From the NCBI GenBank assembly GCA_038208905.1, contig JBBQYG010000027.1:1-32753 (forward strand): 32,753 bases of DNA, written 5' to 3'. Under the pieces are notes generated by a model that saw nothing but the letters and a program-made list of their open reading frames with translations, was not told the origin of the DNA and did not search any database. The stretch is from Candidatus Sumerlaeia bacterium (GTDB lineage Bacteria; Sumerlaeota; Sumerlaeia; SLMS01). Below are positions 11,173 to 22,411 of this stretch, piece after piece; positions within the stretch are counted from its first letter, which is position 1, and each line of letters begins with the position of its first letter. The position numbers and the translations under genes are program-made.

Positions 11173-12048
11173 TTGTCCACTCCCGCCTCCTCCAGCGATC
11201 TCCGCCTCGCCCTTCCCAAGGGCCGGATGCAGGAACAGGTCTTCAAGCTCCTCGCCGACGCAGGCATTCGGCTGACCACGGGAAGCCGCAGCTATCGCCC
11301 GGTGATTTCGCTCCCGGGCTTCGAAACCAAGATTCTCAAGCCCCAGAATATTGTGGAGATGCTGGACCTTGGCTCTCGCGATGTCGGCTTCGCCGGCGCC
11401 GACTGGGTGGCCGAGCTGAAGGCCAATGTGATCGAGGTGGTGGACACCGGCCTTGATCCCGTCCGCATCGTCGCGGCCATCCCGACCGAGTATTTGGTGA
11501 ACGGCGAGCTGCCCAAGCGCCCCCTGATCGTGGCCTCGGAGTACGAGACGCTGGCCCGCGACTGGATCGCCGCGCGCGGCCAGGGCGACAAGTTTGTCCG
11601 CAGCTACGGCGCCACGGAGGTCTTCCCGCCGGAGGACGCCGACGTGATCATCGACAACACGGCGACGGGTTCGACCCTGCGCGCCAACGGGCTCGAGATC
11701 GTCGCCACGCTGATGACTTCCTCCACGCGGATGTATGTGAATCCGCGCGTGATGGACGACAAGGTTCGGCGCCCCGCGCTGGACCGCCTTGTGCTGCTTC
11801 TGAATTCCGTCCTCGAGGCGCGCCGCCGCGTCATGATCGAGGTCAACGTCGGCGCCGACTTTCTGGAGGCCGTCGCCAAGGTGCTCCCCTCCATGCGCGA
11901 GCACACGATCTCCCAGCTCCATCACGGCGCGGGCTTTGCGCTCAAGTCTGCGGTACTGCGCAAGGACCTGCCCCATGTGATCCCGCAGCTAAAGGCAGCC
12001 GGTGGAACCGATATCGTCGTTACCGATATCGCACAGATCGTCCCCTGA
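11173..12048 (+). CDS. hisG: ATP phosphoribosyltransferase, long form with C-terminal regulatory domain
   Basis: LALPKGRM, DVGFAGADW, SYGATE and DNTATGSTLRANGL, plus the C-terminal HisG_C domain. TTG start after AAAGGAAG. Confidence 0.95.
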   Translation: MSTPASSSDLRLALPKGRMQEQVFKLLADAGIRLTTGSRSYRPVISLPGFETKILKPQNIVEMLDLGSRDVGFAGADWVAELKANVIEVVDTGLDPVRIVAAIPTEYLVNGELPKRPLIVASEYETLARDWIAARGQGDKFVRSYGATEVFPPEDADVIIDNTATGSTLRANGLEIVATLMTSSTRMYVNPRVMDDKVRRPALDRLVLLLNSVLEARRRVMIEVNVGADFLEAVAKVLPSMREHTISQLHHGAGFALKSAVLRKDLPHVIPQLKAAGGTDIVVTDIAQIVP

Positions 12049-12068
12049 CCCGAAAGCAGGTCCAGCCC

Positions 12069-13409
12069 GTGGAAAACCCAAGTGCCCAGGGAGTCGCCCC
12101 CTCGCCCGGCGTGGCGGGCGTTGTTGCCTACAGCGTGCCGAAACATGGCGCGCCGATTGACCTAAAGCTGGACGCCAACGAGGGCGAAGCCCCCGCGGAG
12201 GACATCCTTCGCCGCATCATCGAACTCGGCCCCGACGTGATGCGCCGCTATCCCGACGCCAGCGCATTGCAGGCGTTGTTGGCCGCGCGATTCGGCGCCG
12301 ATCCCGCGCGACTGATCGTGACCGCCGGGGCCGACGACGCGCTTGATCGCCTGTGCCGCGCGGTGCTGGCGCCGGGGCGCCGGCTGCTGCTGACGAATCC
12401 GTCCTTCGAAATGCTGCCGCGCTATGCACGCATCGCCGGAGCCGAGGTGGACGAGGTCCCGTGGTGGAGCGGCCCGTTCCCCACCGCCGCGTTCATCGCC
12501 GCGATCCAGCCAAGCACCACGCTCGTTGCGATGGTGACGCCGAACAATCCGACGGGGACGGTGGCGAAGCTCGCGGACTTGGAGGCGCTTTCCGCCGCGG
12601 CGCCGAATGCCATCGTGCTTCTCGATCACGCCTACGTGGAATTTGCCGACGAGGACTTTACAAAGCGCGCGCTCGCGATGCCCAACGTGGTGATCGCGCG
12701 GACGCTCAGCAAGGCGTGGGGCCTCGCGGGACTGCGCGTGGGCTATGCCATCGGGCCCGCGCCGGTGATCGGATGGATGCGCGCGTCGGGAGGGCCCTAT
12801 GCCGTGTCGCGTCCGTCGATCGCGCTGGCCGCGGCGCGTATCGAGGCCGACCGCGGAAGCGAGCGGCGCTTCGTCGCGCAGGTCCGCGCCGACCGCGCGC
12901 TGATCCACGCCACGCTGGACGAACTCGGCGTGCCTCACACCGCGTCGGAGGCGAACTTCGCCTTCGTCACGGATCCGCGCGCGCTCTGGATTCGCGATGC
13001 GCTGGCGGGCCTTGGCATTGCGATTCGCGCGTATCCCGGTCATCCGGAATTGGGGCAGTCGCTCCGCATCACCTGCCCCGGCAACGCGGAGCAGGCCGCG
13101 AGATTGGAGCAGGGCATCCGCGCCGCCATCCGGCCAGAGACGATCGTTGTCGCCTTTGCCCCATCCGACGACTGGCGCGATGCCTCGCCGATCCCGGCGG
13201 TGCGATTCCCCACCCCCGGCGACCACATCACGACCACCGGACCCGCGTGGCTGGTGTCTGACGATCCCAGCAAGCTTTCCGCCGCGCGCGCCGCGGGCAT
13301 GGTTCCCATCGGATACGATCCCGAAGGGAACAAAGCGAAGGAATTGACGGCATCGGGCGCCGCGCGCGTCCTTTCCCGTGCCAGCGACCTCAAGGAGATC
13401 CTCCCATGA
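12069..13409 (+). CDS. hisC: Histidinol-phosphate aminotransferase with a degenerate HAD-like C-terminal extension
   Basis: KLDANE, RYPD, TAGADDA, PNNPTG, DHAYVEF and [16 protein letters not shown] (PLP Lys). About 90 extra C-terminal residues. Confidence 0.93.
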
Positions 13410-13993
13410 CGCCACGTTCCGCGCGCATCGAACGCAATACGTTGGAGACGCGTATCACCCTCACGCTGACGCTCGACGGCACCGGTCAGGCGAACGTCTC
13501 CACGGGGATCGGGTTCCTCGATCACATGATCGGCGCGCTGGCCAAGCACGCGCGCTTCGATCTGGAACTGAAGTGCGATGGCGACCTGCACGTGGACGAT
13601 CACCACACGGCGGAGGATTGCGCCATCGCCCTCGGCCAGGCGCTGGACAAGGCTCTGGGAGAGCGGCGCGGCATCGCGCGCTTTGCGTCTGCCCACGCGC
13701 CGCTGGACGAATCGCTGGCCCGCGTCGTCGTGGACCTGAGCGGTCGCCCATGCGCCGTGGTGGACCTCGCACTGCGCCGCCCCAAGATCGGCGACCTGGC
13801 GTGCGAGAATATCACCCACTTCTTCGCGTCGCTTGCCACGGCATCGCGGTCGGCCATTCACGCCCATGTGCTGCATGGCGAGAACGACCACCACAAGGCC
13901 GAGGCCGCGTTCAAGGCGCTGGCACTCGCGCTGCGCGACGCGGTCAAGCGCGACGGTGGCACCGACGTGCCCAGCACGAAGGGAGTTCTCTGA
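13406..13993 (+). CDS. hisB: Imidazoleglycerol-phosphate dehydratase (monofunctional)
   Basis: [35 protein letters not shown] and PSTKGVL. No N-terminal phosphatase domain. Confidence 0.96.
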
Positions 13994-14611
13994 ATGAGCG
14001 CTCCTAGAATTGCCGTCGTCAAGACGGGGCTTGCGAATCTGGCGTCGGTGCTCGCGGGTCTCCGCCGCGCCGGGGCGGAGCCATTCGCCACCGAGGAACC
14101 GTCCGAGGTCGCCGCCGCCTCCCATGTCATGCTTCCGGGTGTGGGGGCGTTCGGCGCCGCGATGGAGACGCTTAACGCGCGCGGCCTGACCGCCGTGCTG
14201 CGCGAGCGCGTCGCCGGGGGACGCCCCACCATGGCGATTTGCCTGGGGCTTCAACTCCTCGCGAAAGAGAGCGAGGAAACCCCCGGCATCGAGGGCCTCG
14301 CGTGCATAGACAAATCCATCGGCCGCCTTCCCGATGGTGTGCGCGTCCCCCAGCTTGGCTGGAACCACGTTGAGCCGGTAGCGGGTTGTCGCCTCCTGCG
14401 CCCGGGCTTCGCATACTTCGCCAATAGCTACTGCCTCCCCGCCGCGCCGGAGGGCTGGTCGCCTGCCTACGTCGAGCATGGCATCCGCTTCGTCGCCGCG
14501 ATGGAGAAGGGGAGTCTGCTGGCCTGCCAGTTCCACCCGGAACTGAGCGGCGCCTGGGGCCTGTCGCTCCTTAAGCGCTGGCTCGGAACCGCCACGGGGG
14601 AGGACGCCTGA
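13994..14611 (+). CDS. hisH: Imidazole glycerol phosphate synthase, glutaminase subunit
   Basis: [28 protein letters not shown] and QFHPE. Confidence 0.95.
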
Positions 14612-15372
14612 TGCTGACACGACGAATCATTCCATGCCTAGATTGCCGCGATGGCCGCGTGGTAAAGGGGATCAAGTTCCAGGGCCTCCGCGACGCGGGC
14701 GATCCCGTGGAGCTTTCGCGCGCCTATGAATTGCAGGGCGCCGACGAGCTTGTGCTCCTGGACGTTTCCGCCACGCCGGAGGGCCGCGGGAATCACCTGG
14801 ATACTGTCCGCCGCGTGCGGGAGATGTTGTCTATACCTCTCACTGTGGGCGGGGGAGTGCGCACTGCTGAGAACGCGCGCGCCCTTCTGGAGGCTGGGGC
14901 AGACAAGGTTGGCGTCAACACCGCCGCCGTCACGAATCCCCAAGTCATCCGCGACATCGCGCGGAACTTTGGCAGCCAGTGCGCCGTCGTCGCCATCGAC
15001 GCGGCGCATCGCCTCGATGGGCCCGGTTGGGAGATCGTCGTGATGAGCGGACGCGAGCGCACGGGCATCGACGCCATCGAGTGGGCCCGCAAGGTCGTCC
15101 ACGAATACGAGGCTGGCGAAATCCTCCTTACAAGCTGGGATCGCGACGGCACGCGCTCGGGCTACGATCTGCCGCTCCTCACGGCAGTCTCCAGCGCCGT
15201 CAACATTCCCGTCATCGCCTCCGGCGGCGCGGCGACGCCCGCGCACCTGCTTGAGGCCATCGAGGCTGGCGCCGACGCCGTGCTGGCAGCCTCGATTTTC
15301 CACGATGGCGAATACAACGTCGGCAGCCTGAAATCCTACCTGAGCGAACGTGGAGTCGCCATCCGCCCATGA
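14611..15372 (+). CDS. hisF: Imidazole glycerol phosphate synthase, cyclase subunit
   Basis: [53 protein letters not shown] and VIASGG. Confidence 0.96.
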
Positions 15373-16640
15373 TTATTCCATCGATCGACCTCATGGACGG
15401 CCAGTCCGTCCAGCTTGTGGGCGGCAAGGCCGAGTCCCGCAGCCAGGAGCGCGAGTACGGCGATCCCTTACCGCTGCTGCGCAAGTTCAGCATCGCGGGG
15501 GAGGTGGCCGTCATCGACCTCGACCGCGCGCTCGGCAAGGGCTCCAACGAGGATGTAATTCGCCGCCTCGTCAAGCAGGCGCCCTGCCGCGTGGGTGGTG
15601 GCATCCGCAGCCTGGAAGCCGCCGTGGCATGGCTCGATGCGGGCGCCGCCAAGATCATTCTGGGCACGGCGGCGAAGCCGGAGATTCTCCGCGAGCTTCC
15701 CGCCGGGCGCGTGATCGCCGCGCTGGATGCCTTCAACAACGACGTGGTGGTGGAGGGCTGGACCAAGAGCACCGGCGTCACGATCATGGATCGCCTGCGC
15801 GAGCTGCGCGAGGACGTTGGCGGATTCCTCGTCACCTTCGTGGAGCGCGAGGGCCGCCTTGGCGGAACCAACATGGAACTAGCCAGGGAGATCGTCGCCG
15901 CCGCCGGCAAGGCGCGCGTCACCTTTGCCGGCGGCATCACCACCGCTGAGGAAATCGCGGAGCTCGACAAGCTCGGCGCAGATTCCCAGGTCGGTATGGC
16001 AATATATACGGGGAGGCTCGACTTCGGCGACGCGATCTCGGCGCCGCTGGTGTCGGATCGCCCCGATGGGCTCTTTCCCACGATCGTCGCCGACGAATCG
16101 GGCGTTGTGCTTGGCATGGCCTATTCGAGCCGAGAGAGCATCCGCGCCGCCGTCGCCCGCCAGTTGGGCATCTACCAGTCGCGCAAGCGCGGCCTGTGGG
16201 TGAAGGGCGAGACCTCCGGCGCGACGCAGGAGCTCTTCGGCATCGCGCTCGACTGTGACCGCGACGCGCTGAGGTTCATCGTGCGCCAGAATGGATCGGG
16301 CTACTGCCACCTCGACCAGTTCACCTGCTTCGGCGATATCAAGGGACTAGCCCGACTCCAGCAGACGACGCAGGAACGGCGCGAGAATGCACCCTCCGGA
16401 TCCTATACCAAGCGCCTATTCGACGACGCGGCGCTGCTGCGCTCGAAGCTGGTGGAGGAGGCCGGCGAGCTCGCCGACGCCGCCACCGCCGAGGACGTGG
16501 CTTGGGAGGCCGCCGACTTGCTCTACTTCGCCTTCGTCGCCATGGCCAAGGCGGGCGTCTCCATCGCCGACGTGGAGCGCCAGCTTGACCTCCGCGCGCT
16601 GAAACTGACCCGCCGCCCCGGCAACGCAAAGGCACCGTGA
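15369..16640 (+). CDS. hisIE: Fused HisA-like isomerase / PR-AMP cyclohydrolase (HisI) / PR-ATP pyrophosphatase (HisE)
   Basis: N-terminal [29 protein letters not shown] and ILGTAA (HisA). Middle [14 protein letters not shown] and CH..TCF (HisI). C-terminal [15 protein letters not shown] and WEAADLLY (HisE). Confidence 0.92.
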
Positions 16641-17896
16641 TGCTCCGCAAGGTTACCGCCGCCGAAGTCCCTTCGCTCCTCCGCGATCCCGTTGACGCGC
16701 CGACGCTGGAAGCCGCGCGCGCCATCGTGGACGACGTCAGGCACAATGGCGAATCCGTCATGCGTCTCTACGCGGAGCGCTTCGGCGAAGTCGAACCCCG
16801 CGCGCCGCTCGTGATCGGCAAGGACACGCTCCGCGCGGCATTCGAGGCGCTTCCCACCAAGGACAAGAACCTTCTTCTTCGCGTTCACGACCGCATCCGC
16901 AAGTTCGCCGAGGCCCAACGCGCGGCGATGAAGGACATCGTGGTGGAACTCCCCGGCGGTAGGGCCGGGCACTTCGTCGCGCCGGTGGAGGTCGCGGGGT
17001 GCTACGCTCCCGGCGGCGGATTTCCGCTCCCGTCTTCCGTCCTGATGACCGCCGTCACCGCGCGCGCGGCGGGCGTGCGGACGGTGATCGTCGCCAGCCC
17101 CAGGCCGCTTCCGATTGTTCGTGCAGCGGCCCACGTCGCGGGTGCCGACATGCTCCTCGCCGTGGGCGGCGCCCACGCCATCGCCGCGATGGCGTTTGGC
17201 GCGGGCGTGCCGCGATGCGATGTCATTGTCGGACCCGGGAGCAAGTGGGTCACCGCCGCCAAGCAGATCGTCTCCGGCCGCGTTGCCATCGACATGCTTG
17301 CCGGTCCGTCCGAACTCGTGGTCCTTGCCGACGATTCCGCAGATCCGTCGATCATCGCCGCGGACTTGTTGGCCCAGGCTGAGCACGGCTTCGATTCGCT
17401 TCCGATCCTCGTCACCACCAGCGCCGACCTGATCGACCGCGTGAACGCAGAGATCGCCGCACAGCTTGAATCCCTTCCCACGCGGGAAACCGCCATCGCT
17501 TCGGTTGGTGGCGGCTATGCCGTGCTCGCATCCACGCTGGACGAGGCCGTTGCCGTGGTGGATGGCATCGCGCCCGAGCACTTGGAACTCCTGATGGAGA
17601 ACGCGTCTTCGGTCGCCACGCGGCTGCGTCACTACGGCGGGCTGTTCGTTGGCGCTGGCGCGGCGGAGGTGCTGGGCGACTATGGCGCCGGGCCGAATCA
17701 CACGCTTCCCACGGGCGGCACCGCGCGATTCACCGGCGGGCTGTCGGTCTTCAACTTCCTGCGCGTTCGAACTTGGATGCGAATCGACGATCTGTGGGCT
17801 GCTCGGGAACTGGTCGAGGACGCGCGCGACCTCGCGCGTCACGAACTGCTGGAGGGCCACGCGCGCTCCGCCGAGAAGAGGCTCGTCAGGCCGTAG
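16637..17896 (+). CDS. hisD: Histidinol dehydrogenase
   Basis: GCYAPGG, VGGAHAIAA, IDMLAGPSE, LAQAEH, APEHLEL, GDYGAGPNHTLPT and EGHARS. Start overlaps the upstream stop (GTGATG). Confidence 0.96.
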   Translation: MMLRKVTAAEVPSLLRDPVDAPTLEAARAIVDDVRHNGESVMRLYAERFGEVEPRAPLVIGKDTLRAAFEALPTKDKNLLLRVHDRIRKFAEAQRAAMKDIVVELPGGRAGHFVAPVEVAGCYAPGGGFPLPSSVLMTAVTARAAGVRTVIVASPRPLPIVRAAAHVAGADMLLAVGGAHAIAAMAFGAGVPRCDVIVGPGSKWVTAAKQIVSGRVAIDMLAGPSELVVLADDSADPSIIAADLLAQAEHGFDSLPILVTTSADLIDRVNAEIAAQLESLPTRETAIASVGGGYAVLASTLDEAVAVVDGIAPEHLELLMENASSVATRLRHYGGLFVGAGAAEVLGDYGAGPNHTLPTGGTARFTGGLSVFNFLRVRTWMRIDDLWAARELVEDARDLARHELLEGHARSAEKRLVRP

Positions 17897-17911: not shown

Positions 17912-18631
17912 TCAATTCTCGACGCGCCGCAGCAATCCCATCGGCGTGCATTCGCTTCCCTGGCCGAGCGGGTTGTCCTTCAGCGACGCCTCGACCAGCT
18001 TGCGGTTCACGCCCGCGCTCGCGCCCAGGACCCAGCTACCTCCGATGTCGTTCACGTCCACGATGGCGCACTCGAGTCCGGTGTGGCGGAGGACATCCGA
18101 CGCGACCTTGTCGGGATTCTTGGGGCCTAGAATCACGCAATCGGGCTGGAGCGGCGATGTTGTCGCCGCGTCGATCGTCGCTGCCTGGGGACCGGCGACG
18201 CGATAGAAGTCGCCCTTACGACCAACCATTTTGCCAAGCGCGCCCACAATCGCCGCCAGCCAGATGCGCGCGGCGCCGCACTCGTTCACGGCGCACTGCA
18301 TCGAGGACGGACGACGGAGCCCGATGCCGTAGGGCACTTTCCCGACGCAGCGCCACAGGATCCGCGCCGTCAGTCCGATCTTGATTTCCGACTCGGGGAT
18401 CGCGCGGCCCTGGGTTACGGCCACGGCCTTCTCCGAGATGAACAGCACGTCGCCGGGCTTCGCATGGGGGACGGCAAACTGGGTGATCGTCGCGATCAGG
18501 TCCGTGGAACGAACCAGCACCGGGGTCCGGATCGGCAGCCGGGCAAAGCTCCCTTCGGGGAGTTGGGTGCACAGGCGGCGGTTGGGATTCGCTTCGAAGG
18601 AGAGAGGAAGGGCGGGGGCGGCGGCGCTCAT
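17912..18631 (-). CDS. Coenzyme F420-0:gamma-glutamyl ligase (CofE)-like family protein
   Basis: LPIRTPVL, GDVLFISEKAVAVTQGR, FYRVAG..AATID, AIVDVNDIG and DNPLGQGSECTP. Start estimated at ATG 18631. Confidence 0.75.
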   Translation of the reverse strand: MSAAAPALPLSFEANPNRRLCTQLPEGSFARLPIRTPVLVRSTDLIATITQFAVPHAKPGDVLFISEKAVAVTQGRAIPESEIKIGLTARILWRCVGKVPYGIGLRRPSSMQCAVNECGAARIWLAAIVGALGKMVGRKGDFYRVAGPQAATIDAATTSPLQPDCVILGPKNPDKVASDVLRHTGLECAIVDVNDIGGSWVLGASAGVNRKLVEASLKDNPLGQGSECTPMGLLRRVEN

Positions 18632-18843
18632 CGGGAAGGGGCATCCTCGGGAGAATCTGAATCGAGGCGAGACCACATCCCGTGGCAGCACACCGTCAAC
18701 ATCAACCGCCAGAAAATGCATCAGTATCCAGTTTGGCCCTCCCGATGTTGTTTCTGGTCGTTTTTCCCCTGTGCTCTCCCCGCCCCGATAGTGAAGGCTT
18801 TTCTTGTTCGTCGGGAATCTGGCCATCAGGAGTCACCCCTATT

Positions 18844-19791
18844 GTGAGCACCGCGCCCTCAAGCGATTTCGCCGCCCTCTCAGAGGCCATCGTCGCCAGC
18901 TACGAGATCGAACCCTGCACGCGGCACATCGACATCGGTCCCCTCCCAAACCACGACGCCGTGGTGGGCGTAATCCACTTGCTGCGCGAGCTGCTGCTGC
19001 CGGGCTACTTCGGGCGTCAGAACCTGGCGTCCAAGACGCTGACGTATCACGTGGGAAGCCTTCTGGCCGATATTCATGACAAGCTGCTGGGCCAGGTGCG
19101 GGACGCGCTCCGCCACGATTGCACGCGAGGCAATGGCGAGCCGACGCCTAGCGCGGAGGAGGCGGAGGAGATCGTCCGCGATTTCCTCGGCACAATTCCG
19201 CAGCTTCGCGCGATCCTTGCCACCGACGCACGCGCTGCCTTCGAGGGCGACCCCGCCGCGCGTAGCATCGGGGAGATCATCTTCTCCTACCCGGGTTTCT
19301 TTGCGGTGCTCGTCTTCCGCATCGCCCACGAGCTGCACCTGCGCCGTGTCCCCCTGATCCCGCGCATCATGACCGAGCACGCACACAGCCTGACGGGAAT
19401 CGACATTCATCCCGGAGCCACCATCGACGAGCACTTCTTTATCGACCACGGCACCGGTGTCGTCATTGGGGAGACCACCGTCATCGGCAAGCGCGTAAAG
19501 ATTTATCAGGGCGTCACCCTCGGCGCGCTCTCCACCCGCGGGGGCCAGTCGCTTCGCGGCGTCCGCCGCCACCCGACCCTTGAGGACGATGTGACCGTGT
19601 ATTCCGGGGCCTCTATCCTTGGCGGAGAAACGGTTGTCGGCAACGGAGCCGTCATCAGCGGCAACGTCTTCGTCACCAAGTCCGTCCCCCCCAACACCCG
19701 CGTCACGGTCAAGAACCCCGAACTCCAGTATCGCGACCAGAAGCCTTCGGAGTTCCGGCAGGATATTCCGCAGGGCGATTGGGTGATCTAG
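18844..19791 (+). CDS. cysE: Serine O-acetyltransferase (long EpsC/CysE type)
   Basis: GDPAARS, YPG, TGIDIHPGA, FFIDHGTGVVIGET, IYQGVTLGA and RHPTLED. GTG 18844 follows an AGGAG RBS. Confidence 0.92.
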   Translation: MSTAPSSDFAALSEAIVASYEIEPCTRHIDIGPLPNHDAVVGVIHLLRELLLPGYFGRQNLASKTLTYHVGSLLADIHDKLLGQVRDALRHDCTRGNGEPTPSAEEAEEIVRDFLGTIPQLRAILATDARAAFEGDPAARSIGEIIFSYPGFFAVLVFRIAHELHLRRVPLIPRIMTEHAHSLTGIDIHPGATIDEHFFIDHGTGVVIGETTVIGKRVKIYQGVTLGALSTRGGQSLRGVRRHPTLEDDVTVYSGASILGGETVVGNGAVISGNVFVTKSVPPNTRVTVKNPELQYRDQKPSEFRQDIPQGDWVI

Positions 19792-19918: not shown

Positions 19919-22411
19919 ATGAGGAGATTCAGCGTGAAATCAACGATGATGGCGCTCTGGCTGGCGGCGATCCTATTCGCCGGGCTTTCGGTTGTACCTG
20001 CCCAGATCCACGTCGCCGTGGCCGGCAACGACCAGACGGGAAACGGGACAGCGGCCAGCCCCTTCGCCTCTCTGAAGCGCGCCCTTCAGGCGAGCGGGAA
20101 CCTGATCCTGATCGAATCCGGGCAGTACGTGTTGGCGGAACCCCTTGTGATTGGGCCGGGCCGGACGGTGGAGGGCGGCTTCAAGATCATCCCCTTCGCC
20201 TCAACCGGCGGCCTCGCCTATGCCGCCGATGGTGCGCCCACGGTGCTGCTTGCGGTGGGCGTCCCCGGGTCCCCCGCGCTGAGGGTGGACACGGCCGCCC
20301 TCCTGAGGGGCGTTTCGATCTTCGGCGGATTCTACAGCGTGGAGCTACTCCCCGGCGGGCGAATTTTCGAGGTTGAGTTCGGCGGGGGACAATTCGCCTC
20401 CATCATGATCCGAACGGCGGGGGGAGCCAATCCGGCCTATGTCGAACGCTGCCGTATTCTTGGCGGCGGAACCGGCATCCGCGTCGATGGCGCCGCAAGG
20501 GCCTCGATCCTCGAAACCATGATCCGAGACGTCCAGTCGGGCGGCATCGCGCTAAGTGGCACCGGCACCGTCACCATTCTGAACTCTGTGATTCAGGGCG
20601 CCCTCGGCGACGGGATTACTATCACCGGCAACAACAACGCGGGGATCCAGAACTGCGTCGTGCGCCGGTGCTCCGGGGACGGAATCCGCATCTCTCGCGC
20701 CGCGCCGCTTGTTCGCGGCTGCCTTGTCGAGCAAAACCGCTTCGGCATCCGGATCAGCGACTCCACGAATCCACAAGTCTCCCACTGCACGATCGTCGGC
20801 AACCGCGAGTCCGGCGTGTATATGCGTCTGGCGAATCCCAATCTCGATGGCAACATCATCGCCAACAACGGGAAGTTCGGCGTTCAGGAGGATAACCCGG
20901 GCTCCATCACCGAGACCGATCCCGACGGAAATCCCATCCAGATTCCCGCCCCCACGCACGGTGGGTTCGTGGTTCGCAATATCCTATGGCAAAACTCGAG
21001 TGGACAATACCTCGACGAGAATTCCACAATCATCGCATCGCAGGCGGACCTCGATTCAGCAATCGTCAACACCGGCGAGGTCAGCGCCAACACCATCGCC
21101 GATCCGCTTTTCCTGGACGTTGCTAACAAGAACTATCGCCTTTCCGCGACGTCTCCCGCCATCGACGCGGCCCCGATTCCCGGGCTTATTCCGGAGGATC
21201 TGGAGGGAAACTCCCGTACCATCGACATACCGGGCGTTGGCGACGATGGGCCCACGGCCAACGTGGCCGATCTCGGAGCCTACGAGCTTCAGAATGAGTA
21301 CAGCATCGCCTTCGCGACCATCACTTCCGACAATTCCAAGGTCCCCGACCCGACATATCCCGGACAGCAGACCAACTACAAGCGGACGTCCGAATGGGAG
21401 TACCTCGAGAACTTCCCCGGATCGCGACCCGTTGTTGATTTCCTTCCCGGCCGCATTCGCCTCAAGGCCCCCGGCAACGAGGCGCTTGGCATTGTTGCCC
21501 GCCATCGCGCGGACATCTTCCAGGACTCAGACAAGATCCTGATCATCGACACCGAACTGGCGGCCCTGGCGCCGAGTGGTCGCCCCGGAATCCGCATGCG
21601 ACTCGGCGAGGCCAGCAACTTCGATATCGCCTCAACATTTGGCGTCTGGGGCGACGCCCCTTTCAGCGCGGAAACCGACGAGAAGCCGTACCCCCTCATC
21701 GTTGACCTCGTGCAGGGAGGCTATCGTCGGCTCGGCGCAAGCCTGCCCGAAAGGTTCAACACGGGATTCTTTATCGACTACGTGGACTTCTTCAACCAGT
21801 CGCTCCACACGGGAATGGACGTCAGGGGAGTTCGCGTGCGACACATAGACCGCGCCATTTTCGACGCTCAGTTCGACAGGCAGATCGCGTTCGATTCCTT
21901 CAACCCCGGCGATCCGATCGTCTGGACCAATGGCGGCGTCGGGCCGCCTGTGAACACGCCGCGATTCCGCTACGATGCGATCCGCGGGGGGCTGGAGATC
22001 CGCCAGCTCGCCGACTTCTCCTTTGGCACGTGGGCATCGCCTCCGGTTCCCATCGCGAGGGGCACCCGCTTCAAGGTGGACTTCAAGGTCTCCACTCAGC
22101 AGTCCGGCGCGGCCGCACCCGCCTTCCGCCTCCGCATTATGAGCCTCGCCTACCCGTTCATTCAGGAGATGATCGTTCTCCCCACTGCCAACGGCTCGTC
22201 CACCCCGCCTTCCGATGGCGAGCGGTACACGATGTATGGCTACATGCCGAACGTGGACTACCCGACTCCGTATCCGGCGCAAACCGGCGACATTCCCGAG
22301 TTGACCGTCTTCTTCGACCTGATGGGATTTTCCTACGACAATCGTTCTCCCACAGGGTCGGTTCTGCTCGAGGAAGTCAGAATCACCGCCGCGACCAATC
22401 CCCTCTACTGA
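19919..22411 (+). CDS. Secreted right-handed parallel beta-helix (pectin-lyase-like) protein with two uncharacterised C-terminal domains
   Basis: Signal peptide; HVAVAGND..GTAASPFASL (DUF1565-like start); repeated GIxI...NCxIxxN rungs; NYRLSATSPAID..DLEGNSR..DLGAYE beta-helix cap. Confidence 0.85.
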   Translation: MRRFSVKSTMMALWLAAILFAGLSVVPAQIHVAVAGNDQTGNGTAASPFASLKRALQASGNLILIESGQYVLAEPLVIGPGRTVEGGFKIIPFASTGGLAYAADGAPTVLLAVGVPGSPALRVDTAALLRGVSIFGGFYSVELLPGGRIFEVEFGGGQFASIMIRTAGGANPAYVERCRILGGGTGIRVDGAARASILETMIRDVQSGGIALSGTGTVTILNSVIQGALGDGITITGNNNAGIQNCVVRRCSGDGIRISRAAPLVRGCLVEQNRFGIRISDSTNPQVSHCTIVGNRESGVYMRLANPNLDGNIIANNGKFGVQEDNPGSITETDPDGNPIQIPAPTHGGFVVRNILWQNSSGQYLDENSTIIASQADLDSAIVNTGEVSANTIADPLFLDVANKNYRLSATSPAIDAAPIPGLIPEDLEGNSRTIDIPGVGDDGPTANVADLGAYELQNEYSIAFATITSDNSKVPDPTYPGQQTNYKRTSEWEYLENFPGSRPVVDFLPGRIRLKAPGNEALGIVARHRADIFQDSDKILIIDTELAALAPSGRPGIRMRLGEASNFDIASTFGVWGDAPFSAETDEKPYPLIVDLVQGGYRRLGASLPERFNTGFFIDYVDFFNQSLHTGMDVRGVRVRHIDRAIFDAQFDRQIAFDSFNPGDPIVWTNGGVGPPVNTPRFRYDAIRGGLEIRQLADFSFGTWASPPVPIARGTRFKVDFKVSTQQSGAAAPAFRLRIMSLAYPFIQEMIVLPTANGSSTPPSDGERYTMYGYMPNVDYPTPYPAQTGDIPELTVFFDLMGFSYDNRSPTGSVLLEEVRITAATNPLY

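Follow-up and report, generated by a model that had tools for sequence, protein, structure and literature searches.

The fungal protein His4 is a classic genetic marker in yeast and a proposed antifungal target. The sections of Fani et al. 2007 (PMC1963479) that treat it describe a 160–220-residue N-terminus without a domain match, a PSI-BLAST homologue or an assigned function, and report that a HIS4-like protein is absent from prokaryotes. Rice et al. 2018 (PMC6029752), in the part of the paper that concerns Acanthamoeba, describe a heptafunctional protein confirmed by polymerase chain reaction. For bacteria, the similarity-network portion of Witek et al. 2021 (PMC8102479) contains trifunctional PRA-PH / PRA-CH / ProFAR isomerase proteins near plant and fungal sequences, with Myxococcales-like sources indicated and Gammaproteobacteria and Spirochaetia named. 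Here we analyze a bacterial gene of this kind, a hisA-hisI-hisE fusion followed directly by hisD, from a Candidatus Sumerlaeia bacterium (assembly GCA_038208905.1, contig JBBQYG010000027.1, positions 1 to 32,753 of the forward strand; "the window" is this whole stretch of 32,753 nucleotides). We write A, I, E, D and so on for the corresponding His domains, and IE for HisI followed by HisE. In our judgement the gene probably encodes a working A-I-E enzyme of a coupled operon, a member of whose family reached an early eukaryote, and fungi keep a relic of its barrel together with IE, joined to another HisD.

The fusion occupies a single open reading frame (ORF), and its three Pfam matches (PF00977, PF01502 and PF01503) all exceed the Pfam cut-offs. 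Its parts are as follows.

15369–16640, plus strand: hisA-hisI-hisE fusion gene, a single ORF of 423 amino acids (aa) plus stop, with three Pfam domains
15369–16019, plus strand: HisA (ProFAR isomerase) (beta/alpha)8 barrel domain, residues 1–217; PF00977 His_biosynth, 145.3 bits, profile positions 1–227 of 228
16020–16115, plus strand: A-to-IE linker, residues 218–249, including a short segment directly before SDRPDGL
16116–16331, plus strand: HisI (phosphoribosyl-AMP cyclohydrolase) domain, residues 250–321; PF01502 PRA-CH, 78.6 bits
16350–16592, plus strand: HisE (phosphoribosyl-ATP pyrophosphohydrolase) domain, residues 328–408; PF01503 PRA-PH, 70 bits; TIGR03188, 73.5 bits (cut-off 42.7)

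The ATG of the fusion overlaps the hisF stop as ATGA. At the other end the junction with hisD reads ccGTGATGctc, with the fusion stop TGA at 16638–16640 and two candidate hisD starts, GTG at 16637 (4-base overlap with the fusion ORF) or ATG at 16640 (1-base overlap). IE is thus separated from HisD by a stop, and hisD is a distinct overlapping ORF, unlike in fungal His4, which is one chain. ORF, domains and junction bases all agree with what an earlier note on this DNA, made from the letters alone, had read there, and every protein string that it quoted from the window is present in the translation of the 423-aa ORF. The overlap itself is not conserved, since in two related Sumerlaeota loci the A-IE match ends about 30 bases before the hisD match begins. 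In an alignment, the linker segment before SDRPDGL is kept in bacterial A-IE fusions, in eukaryotic polyproteins and in fungal His4 (QINITDAFLAPVV), and the end of E. coli HisA differs from it.

There is nothing exceptional about the fusion, which belongs to a widespread family that public annotation already covers. HisA stands directly before IE in 120/120 of the best near-length homologues (61–100% identity), so the architecture is not an artefact of assembly or chance. Named sources of these homologues are Sumerlaeota (closest, 68–72%), Myxococcota/Bradymonadaceae, Phycisphaerae and Geminicoccaceae, and many of the relatives carry the public name "phosphoribosyl-ATP diphosphatase". Among the best 120 longer homologues A again precedes IE in all 120, and 111 have the order A-IE-D in one chain. 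Of these 111 chains 99 are 823–950 aa long, with names from Gemmatimonadales, Phycisphaerales, Myxococcota and "Deltaproteobacteria", and a bacterial A-I-E-D protein was also seen in the domain-order check. Across these searches the bacterial A-IE / A-IE-D family spans Sumerlaeota, Myxococcota, Phycisphaerae, Gemmatimonadota and others. The A-I-E-D polyprotein that the earlier note had thought conceivable from a small indel at the junction therefore exists in nature. Eukaryotes carry longer versions, including H-F-A-I-E-D-G polyproteins in Acanthamoeba (1,682 aa) and Thecamonas (1,720 aa), and transcriptome or contig proteins add the orders A-I-E-D-C-HAD, A-I-E-G and H-F-A-I-E-B. The window protein is 51–60% identical over its whole length to eukaryotic polyproteins.

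Several variants of the fusion were encountered along the way. On a Bdellovibrionales contig, 6001–7158 of L010 encodes a HisA domain with just the HisE part behind it (IE profile positions 85–196), accompanied by a separate 129-aa HisI on contig L013 and by an upstream hisD just 34% identical to that of the window; from its sequence it looks like an A-E variant of the fusion. A second, more divergent A-IE lineage is found in Myxococcota genomes (L026, L030, L032, L037 and L035 in genomes G063, G057, G014, G079 and G033); it includes one A-IE-D frame of 915 aa, keeps the HisA DREG loop and branches outside the main fused clade. In the Myxococcota sample, 57/81 genomes have a HisI match, in a mix of stand-alone and long frames. 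Two further proteins, P0173 (830 aa) and P0175 (828 aa), list all four families A, I, E and D and have no HisD match at E ≤ 1e-10 after IE; their domain order may be different, for example with D before A-IE.

The IE half of the window protein resembles fungal His4 far more than enterobacterial HisIE. Scored against 1.84 billion cluster representatives, the IE query (window 16044–16637) gave 4,547 matches at an expect value (E) ≤ 0.001, of which the best 150 are 47–66% identical. Named among these 150 are His4 of Mycena, Actinomortierella, Zancudomyces, Blastocladiella, Cladochytrium, Ascoidea and Xylaria, as well as Schizosaccharomyces japonicus His7, a protein of the choanoflagellate Hartaetosiga and an Arcella protein. 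Identity is 55–58% to the IE of fungal His4 (235–267 bits) versus 33–36% to enterobacterial/E. coli HisIE (72 bits to PDB 6j22). The consensus of four named fungal His4 proteins (SDRADGLFPTVV / GLVYSSRESV / SYTQRLFND / WEAADLLYF) bears out, for fungal His4 in general, the parallels that the earlier note had drawn.

Phylogeny places the two in one clade. In a careful maximum-likelihood IE tree of 80 rows, 14 stand-alone HisIE rows (E. coli and 13 Myxococcota) split from all 66 fused rows (support 100/99). Within the latter, a 61-row clade (100/100; branch length 1.02 changes per site) unites 29 bacterial A-IE/A-IE-D rows, 12 named eukaryotes, nine other polyproteins and 11 fungi, so that the window IE, instead of grouping with ordinary bacterial HisIE, shares a clade with fungal His4. 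The fungi form one group (98/95), and all eukaryote-type rows, fungi included, form a 32-row clade (79/85) whose sister (84/85) consists of six Sumerlaeota rows, among them the window, and two other bacteria. The window lies within the 6-row Sumerlaeota group (100/98), and the second fusion lineage of Myxococcota branches deeper, outside the 61-row clade. A FastTree of A+IE with 252 rows, every homologue collected, contains a clade (support 98) of eight named eukaryotic rows and ten other multi-domain proteins; eight more proteins (seven plain A-IE and one A-IE-aminotransferase fusion) complete a 26-row group, which is sister to a 34-row clade that contains the window and every named Sumerlaeota row (support 97 for the 60 rows jointly). 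With moderate support, the nearest named bacteria to the eukaryote-type IE clade appear to be Sumerlaeota, and we regard a source of the eukaryotic genes close to this operon type as moderately supported.

The region preceding IE in fungal His4 also aligns with HisA. In Pfam precomputed annotation PF00977 is listed on none of 120 fungal His4 proteins, for which only PRA-CH, PRA-PH and Histidinol_dh are given. We took 115/121 fungal His4 proteins, trimmed to the part that precedes the SDRxDGL motif (the other six had no exact motif match and were left out), and compared these N-termini with a bacterial HisA-domain profile in hhalign, which returned Prob 97.9%, E 3.2e-13 and a score of 87.4 over 127 colinear columns, fungal positions 51–186 lying on HisA 80–228. 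With the last 16 residues (the segment before the IE motif) removed on both sides, E was 1.3e-10. As controls, a reversed template gave E 0.67 and 20 column-shuffled templates gave E of at least 0.25 and scores of at most 14.5. The fungal profile matched a 20-sequence HisF profile at E 3e-5 (score 39), a size-matched 20-sequence HisA-domain profile at E 3e-13 and E. coli HisA alone at E 8e-4. In the searchable literature (subscription journals and supplements lying outside this scope) we found no paper that derives the His4 N-terminus from HisA; a paper on Medicago HDH (histidinol dehydrogenase) is silent on the evolution of HIS4, its "His4.." strings being residue numbers.

What the alignment reveals is a loss of HisA motifs in the fungal barrel. 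The GGGIR site of HisA, just before the aligned block, has no counterpart there, the catalytic loop FVEREG is missing, SSS or PAG stands in place of AGGI, and the first Asp of HisA is lost in most fungal N-termini. Mortierellomycota N-termini begin MIVPRIDL, MIVPRINL or MIIPSISL versus MIIPSIDL in the window, and those of Basidiomycota begin MSVFLPLL. In the Hartaetosiga protein (868 aa, N*-IE-D, where N* is the region before IE), two colinear matches to the hidden Markov model (HMM) of the bacterial A domain are found (E 9.5e-5 and 2.1e-3). Judged by sequence, HisA decay is graded: it is less advanced in the choanoflagellate and in Mortierellomycota, and more so in Basidiomycota and Ascomycota. 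Ascomycete N-termini (S. japonicus and Ascoidea) match the other fungal N-termini at E 3.3e-9, and S. japonicus as a single sequence reaches E 0.33 against the bacterial A profile. A plain search of 150 representatives with the bacterial A-domain HMM gave many weak, colinear and individually non-significant matches, which we treat as a lead only. One fungal entry stands apart, P0248 of Ascoidea rubescens (1,414 aa), in which the His4 unit starts at about residue 560, after more than 500 unrelated residues; it is probably a merged gene model and not a new fusion.

Predicted structures of the fungal N-terminus fold as HisA-like barrels. The AlphaFold input alignments were fungal-only, and therefore no intact HisA could imprint the predicted fold. 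The model of S. japonicus His7 (414 aa, 82 sequences) has a predicted local distance difference test score (pLDDT) of 88.7 and a predicted template modelling score of 0.84, with eight strand-helix units in residues 1–200. For this two-domain model the best barrel match in Foldseek was HisF (E 4e-6), with generic triose-phosphate isomerase (TIM) barrels close behind, and the N-terminal domain was therefore folded and searched alone. The model of the Mycena His4 N-terminus (186 aa, 27 sequences) has pLDDT 89.3. In an exhaustive VIA comparison with 48,161 PDB representatives its first-ranked match is HisA 4gj1 (Z 16.2, root-mean-square deviation (rmsd) 2.6 Å, 173/186 residues aligned) and its second HisAp 4wd0 (Z 14.7), and its top five matches in Foldseek are all S. 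enterica HisA (E 1.1e-5 to 1.9e-5). A second look at S. japonicus, in which VIA re-compared the top 1,000 chains from Foldseek and listed 50 entries, returned among those 50, besides HisIE/HisI, only HisA, HisF or HisF-derived designs, with HisA 4gj1 at Z 16.1, rmsd 2.7 Å and 185 residues aligned over residues 1–202. Profiles and predicted fold together give good support to the proposal of the earlier note that the fungal His4 N-terminus is a decayed HisA-type barrel: the profile match of E 3.2e-13 stands against controls of E at least 0.25, and HisA is the top PDB fold. The relic barrel may have kept a structural role.

The HisD halves tell a different story from the IE halves. Fungal His4 HisD is 34–37% identical to window HisD versus 43–48% to E. 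coli HisD, in the same proteins whose IE is 55–58% identical to that of the window. In the HisD tree nine fungal rows join E. coli (support 100), and a separate 32-row clade (support 99) holds A-IE-linked bacterial HisD, fused A-IE-D proteins and all non-fungal eukaryotic polyproteins, including that of the choanoflagellate; window HisD falls in this second clade with A-IE-linked HisD. Against PDB, Mycena His4 scores 481 bits to plant chloroplast histidinol dehydrogenase (HDH) and 384 to E. coli HisD, and window HisD scores 206 (plant HDH) and 217 bits (E. coli HisD) against the same two entries. The Hartaetosiga HisD is of the A-IE-linked type, 62% identical to that of Acanthamoeba. A concatenated A+IE+D tree placed fungi near the outgroups, and we do not use it for fungi because the HisD-only tree and the identity tables trace that placement to the different HisD lineage. 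Since the HisD half comes from another lineage, fungal His4 reads as a chimera, with relic barrel and IE from the A-IE lineage and HisD from elsewhere, and not as a direct descendant of the A·IE-D arrangement. Either the fungal IE-D junction formed independently in fungi or the original D was replaced. The suggestion of the earlier note that this operon type is related to the His4 donor consequently holds for IE, which shares the 100/100 clade with fungi, and fails for HisD. Its further idea, that the hisA·IE-hisD coupling is a precursor of the His4 IE-D junction, is not supported, fungal HisD being plant/E. coli-like: the relatives of the coupling in the window are the proteins of amoebozoans, apusomonads and the choanoflagellate, and not the fungal junction.

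Other histories can be set against this chimeric origin. That His4 descends as one piece from an A-I-E-D polyprotein, so that relic, IE and HisD share one history, would fit the identical domain order, the A-IE-D single chains known in bacteria (111/120 longer matches) and in eukaryotes, and the Hartaetosiga N*-IE-D protein with its half-decayed A domain and A-IE-linked HisD. We nevertheless think it improbable, because fungal HisD is nearer to E. coli and plant HisD in identity, in the HisD tree (100 versus 99 for the two clades) and in PDB scores, and the IE halves show the opposite. Much more improbable still is that the likeness of the His4 N-terminus to HisA is generic TIM-barrel similarity or convergence, the domain stemming from another barrel or an independent origin. 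This would suit the missing PF00977 annotation (0/120 fungal His4 in Pfam precomputed annotation) and the VIA ranks that follow HisA, which are other ribulose-phosphate-binding barrels at Z 14.7–14.4, within 1.5–2 Z of HisA at 16.2. Because such barrels score so near, the fold alone cannot single out HisA, and our case for descent from HisA is built on the profile alignment and on where the domain sits in the chain, beyond the superfamily fold. Further results weigh on the same side as those ranks: a profile-to-sequence search of PDB with the fungal N-terminus put HisA on top at a non-significant E of 0.092, the two-sequence ascomycete profile reached just E 0.005 against the bacterial A domain, in the same register, the bacterial A-domain HMM found no match up to E 10 in Ascoidea and Xylaria His4, and ascomycete sequences alone are not significant against HisA. 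The ascomycete link rests on transitivity and fold, since direct ascomycete-to-HisA matches are weak or nil. Yet generic similarity does not account for E 3e-13 between profiles over 127 colinear columns versus E of at least 0.25 in 21 reversed or shuffled controls, nor for HisA scoring well over its paralogue HisF. The domain also occupies the exact place of intact HisA in the closest IE relatives and shares the pre-IE segment with them, graded intermediates exist, and HisA comes first in two independent structure searches.

The direction of transfer needs the same scrutiny. Bacteria could have acquired their A-IE(-D) genes from a eukaryote, as the earlier note had allowed, and to this one might count the 51–60% full-length identity of the window protein to eukaryotic polyproteins and the close neighbourhood of the eukaryotic and Sumerlaeota clades, with all roots depending on few outgroups. 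It is nonetheless a very unlikely course of events: the eukaryotic rows are one clade nested among bacterial rows and not vice versa, a deeper Myxococcota A-IE / A-IE-D lineage lies outside the 61-row clade (66 fused rows, 100/99), and several bacterial phyla carry the fusion within ordinary operons whose genes overlap, at 67% G+C. That deeper lineage and that nesting are why we favour transfer from bacteria to eukaryotes, a direction to which the sequences point. The trees also contain grounds for caution about a bacterial source and a chimeric His4: relations inside the 61-row IE clade are moderately supported (79–85), the bacterial tree rows are best matches to the window protein and so favour its own lineage, few outgroups underlie the rooting, and quick searches with two outgroups on long branches produced the concatenated tree and the HisD tree.

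The account that we prefer starts from what the analysis shows: domain content, fusion distribution, the homology of the His4 N-terminus with HisA, a shared IE clade and a pair of HisD lineages. On this account a Sumerlaeota-like bacterium would translate the 423-aa enzyme from its tightly coupled operon hisG-C-B-H-F-(A·IE)-D, and a member of the bacterial A-IE / A-IE-D family would have entered an early eukaryote. The operon order H-F-A·IE-D would persist as single polyproteins in Acanthamoeba and Thecamonas, and fungal His4 and Schizosaccharomyces His7 would retain the IE of this lineage with the HisA barrel preceding it. The fungal barrel would have shed its catalytic and phosphate-binding motifs and persist as a structural pseudo-enzyme domain, HisD would come from a different lineage, and the IE-D junction would have arisen separately or through replacement of D. 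A bolder version, which we regard as tentative and rather doubtful, has a hisH-hisF-hisA·IE-hisD segment from a Sumerlaeota relative taken whole into an early eukaryote and fused there into a single polyprotein, still present in Acanthamoeba and Thecamonas; fungal HIS7 (H-F) and HIS4 (A-relic-I-E) would then be its two halves, parted between F and A, with HIS6 taking on the HisA step and a HisD of a second lineage coming in as last domain, by replacement or by addition. If that were true, the N-terminus of yeast His4 would be a molecular fossil of an operon-to-polyprotein transfer near the root of Amorphea.

A working bacterial enzyme is consistent with the conserved motifs of the fusion. Top PDB sequence matches of its HisA domain are HisA/PriA chains (E 2.8e-26). 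In the source genome (93.9% complete) only HisF (262 bits) and the fusion HisA domain (147 bits) match PF00977 strongly, two others scoring about 23 bits, and the fusion should therefore supply the only ProFAR isomerase of the cell. A eukaryotic HIS6-type identity of the domain was considered and rejected, TIGR02129 scoring 39.5 bits versus about 150 for bacterial HisA models. Aligned with E. coli HisA, the domain retains D7 (MIIPSIDL), VGGGIRS, ALDA, AGGI and GMAIY, and both glycine motifs of the phosphate sites are present (VGGGIRS and FAGGITT align with E. coli VGGGVRS and SSGGIGD). We take D7 and D176 of S. enterica HisA to be the catalytic acids; PDB titles name D7N and D176A mutants. In the ORF translation the HisI domain has three Cys within DCDRD...GYCH...FTCFG, presumably the metal ligands, and PRA-CH followed by PRA-PH in one chain is the architecture of a bifunctional HisIE. 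HisE, HisI and HisA catalyze steps 2, 3 and 4 of the pathway, so that the domain order A-I-E runs 4, 3, 2. Some features speak against standard enzymes: the RDG loop of HisA is REG in the window, Glu replacing the E. coli Asp as second catalytic acid, and both parts score below NCBIfam equivalog cut-offs (HisA, TIGR00007 149.8 versus 228.95 and NF010112 151.8 versus 243; HisIE, NF002747 129.9 bits versus 187). The REG loop is common to the rest of the fused family, and an unfused Acidobacteriaceae HisA in the alignment likewise has Glu there; by these comparisons fused-type HisA is a divergent subgroup. We infer that the 423-aa protein is a working trifunctional HisE/HisI/HisA enzyme, and channelling between its domains may occur.

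The fusion is the sixth gene of a compact plus-strand histidine operon, hisG-C-B-H-F-(A·IE)-D, that runs from 11173 to 17896. Its other genes are the following.

11173–12048, plus strand: hisG (long-form ATP phosphoribosyltransferase); PF01634 and PF08029
12069–13409, plus strand: hisC (histidinol-phosphate aminotransferase) with a C-terminal extension of about 100 aa; PF00155 at residues 42–345
13406–13993, plus strand: hisB (imidazoleglycerol-phosphate dehydratase), from sequence similarity and operon position; tblastn match in 7/7 related loci, 46–71% identity
13994–14611, plus strand: hisH (glutamine amidotransferase subunit), an ORF with a tblastn match to hisH in 7/7 related loci
14611–15372, plus strand: hisF; PF00977, 262.7 bits
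16637/16640–17896, plus strand: hisD (histidinol dehydrogenase); PF00815 Histidinol_dh, 411 bits; TIGR00069, 395 bits, over the cut-off

For hisC the TIGR01141 score is 211.6 bits, below the 276.55 cut-off. The other junctions are as tight as that of the fusion with hisD (hisC and hisB overlap, hisB and hisH abut, hisH and hisF overlap by one base), and the overlaps are ordinary translational coupling along the whole operon. A scan of genome contigs, with patterns that fit close relatives only, gave seven related loci. Here the synteny proposed for survey in the earlier note recurs: the full order G-C-B-H-F-A·IE-D is found in 4/5 loci at an identity of at least 56% (two Sumerlaeota and two Phycisphaeraceae), the fifth, L007 on a short Myxococcales contig, having B-H-F-A·IE-D. 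The E. coli order is G-D-C-B-H-A-F-I.

Other observations concern hisC and the DNA past the operon. The hisC extension (13104–13406) is retained in both Sumerlaeota loci, and its final 50 or so residues are similar (E 1e-5 and 1e-4) to the C-terminal end of the HAD phosphatase domain, which comes after HisC in the eukaryotic proteins of order A-I-E-D-C-HAD. A Pfam scan of the extension was empty, and it is too short for a whole HAD domain; it may be a truncated histidinol-phosphatase relic, to judge by this resemblance. Just past the operon lie a weak F420-0:gamma-glutamyl ligase-like ORF (17912–18826, minus strand, 30.5 bits), a serine-acetyltransferase-like hexapeptide ORF (18682–19791, plus strand) that overlaps it by about 145 bases as listed, and an 830-aa ORF with repeated G-rich beta-helix-like segments (19919–22411, plus strand).

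The value of the gene, itself one more member of an annotated family, is as a key to an old puzzle about His4. Both points made in the HIS4 sections of Fani et al. 2007 (PMC1963479) would be answered, the N-terminus being a decayed HisA barrel and prokaryotes carrying A-I-E-D chains. Treating the first 200 or so residues of His4 as a pseudo-enzyme barrel packed on IE guides the choice of construct boundaries and the effects to expect from deletions. Taken with these points and with the chimeric make-up of His4, the amoebozoan and apusomonad domain order, which copies operon gene order, outlines a concrete and testable path by which multifunctional enzymes of eukaryotes could have arisen from a bacterial operon.

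Four described systems can be set beside the window gene. It has the same three activities in one chain as the proteins of Witek et al. 2021 (PMC8102479), in whose network portion Sumerlaeota, operon order and the His4 N-terminus lie outside the text. The polyproteins of Acanthamoeba and Thecamonas have the same intact A-I-E-D block, 51–57% identical across the entire window protein, a HisD of the window's lineage (54–56% identical), and a domain order H-F-A-I-E-D that equals the gene order hisH-hisF-hisA·IE-hisD. They differ in being one polypeptide that includes HisH, HisF and HisG, whereas the window has separate coupled genes with hisG first. E. coli hisGDCBHAFI shares the chemistry and the Pfam families; there, however, hisA and hisIE are separate, the order is H-A-F-I with hisD second, and IE is 33–36% identical and branches outside the clade of fused proteins. 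Fungal His4 and Schizosaccharomyces His7 resemble the window in having a HisA-type barrel directly before IE with the same short joining segment, but their barrel is without the GGG/AGG phosphate sites and the catalytic loop, whereas window HisA keeps its motifs, and in fungal His4 IE is fused to a HisD of the plant/E. coli-like lineage, whereas in the window hisD is a separate gene of the other lineage.

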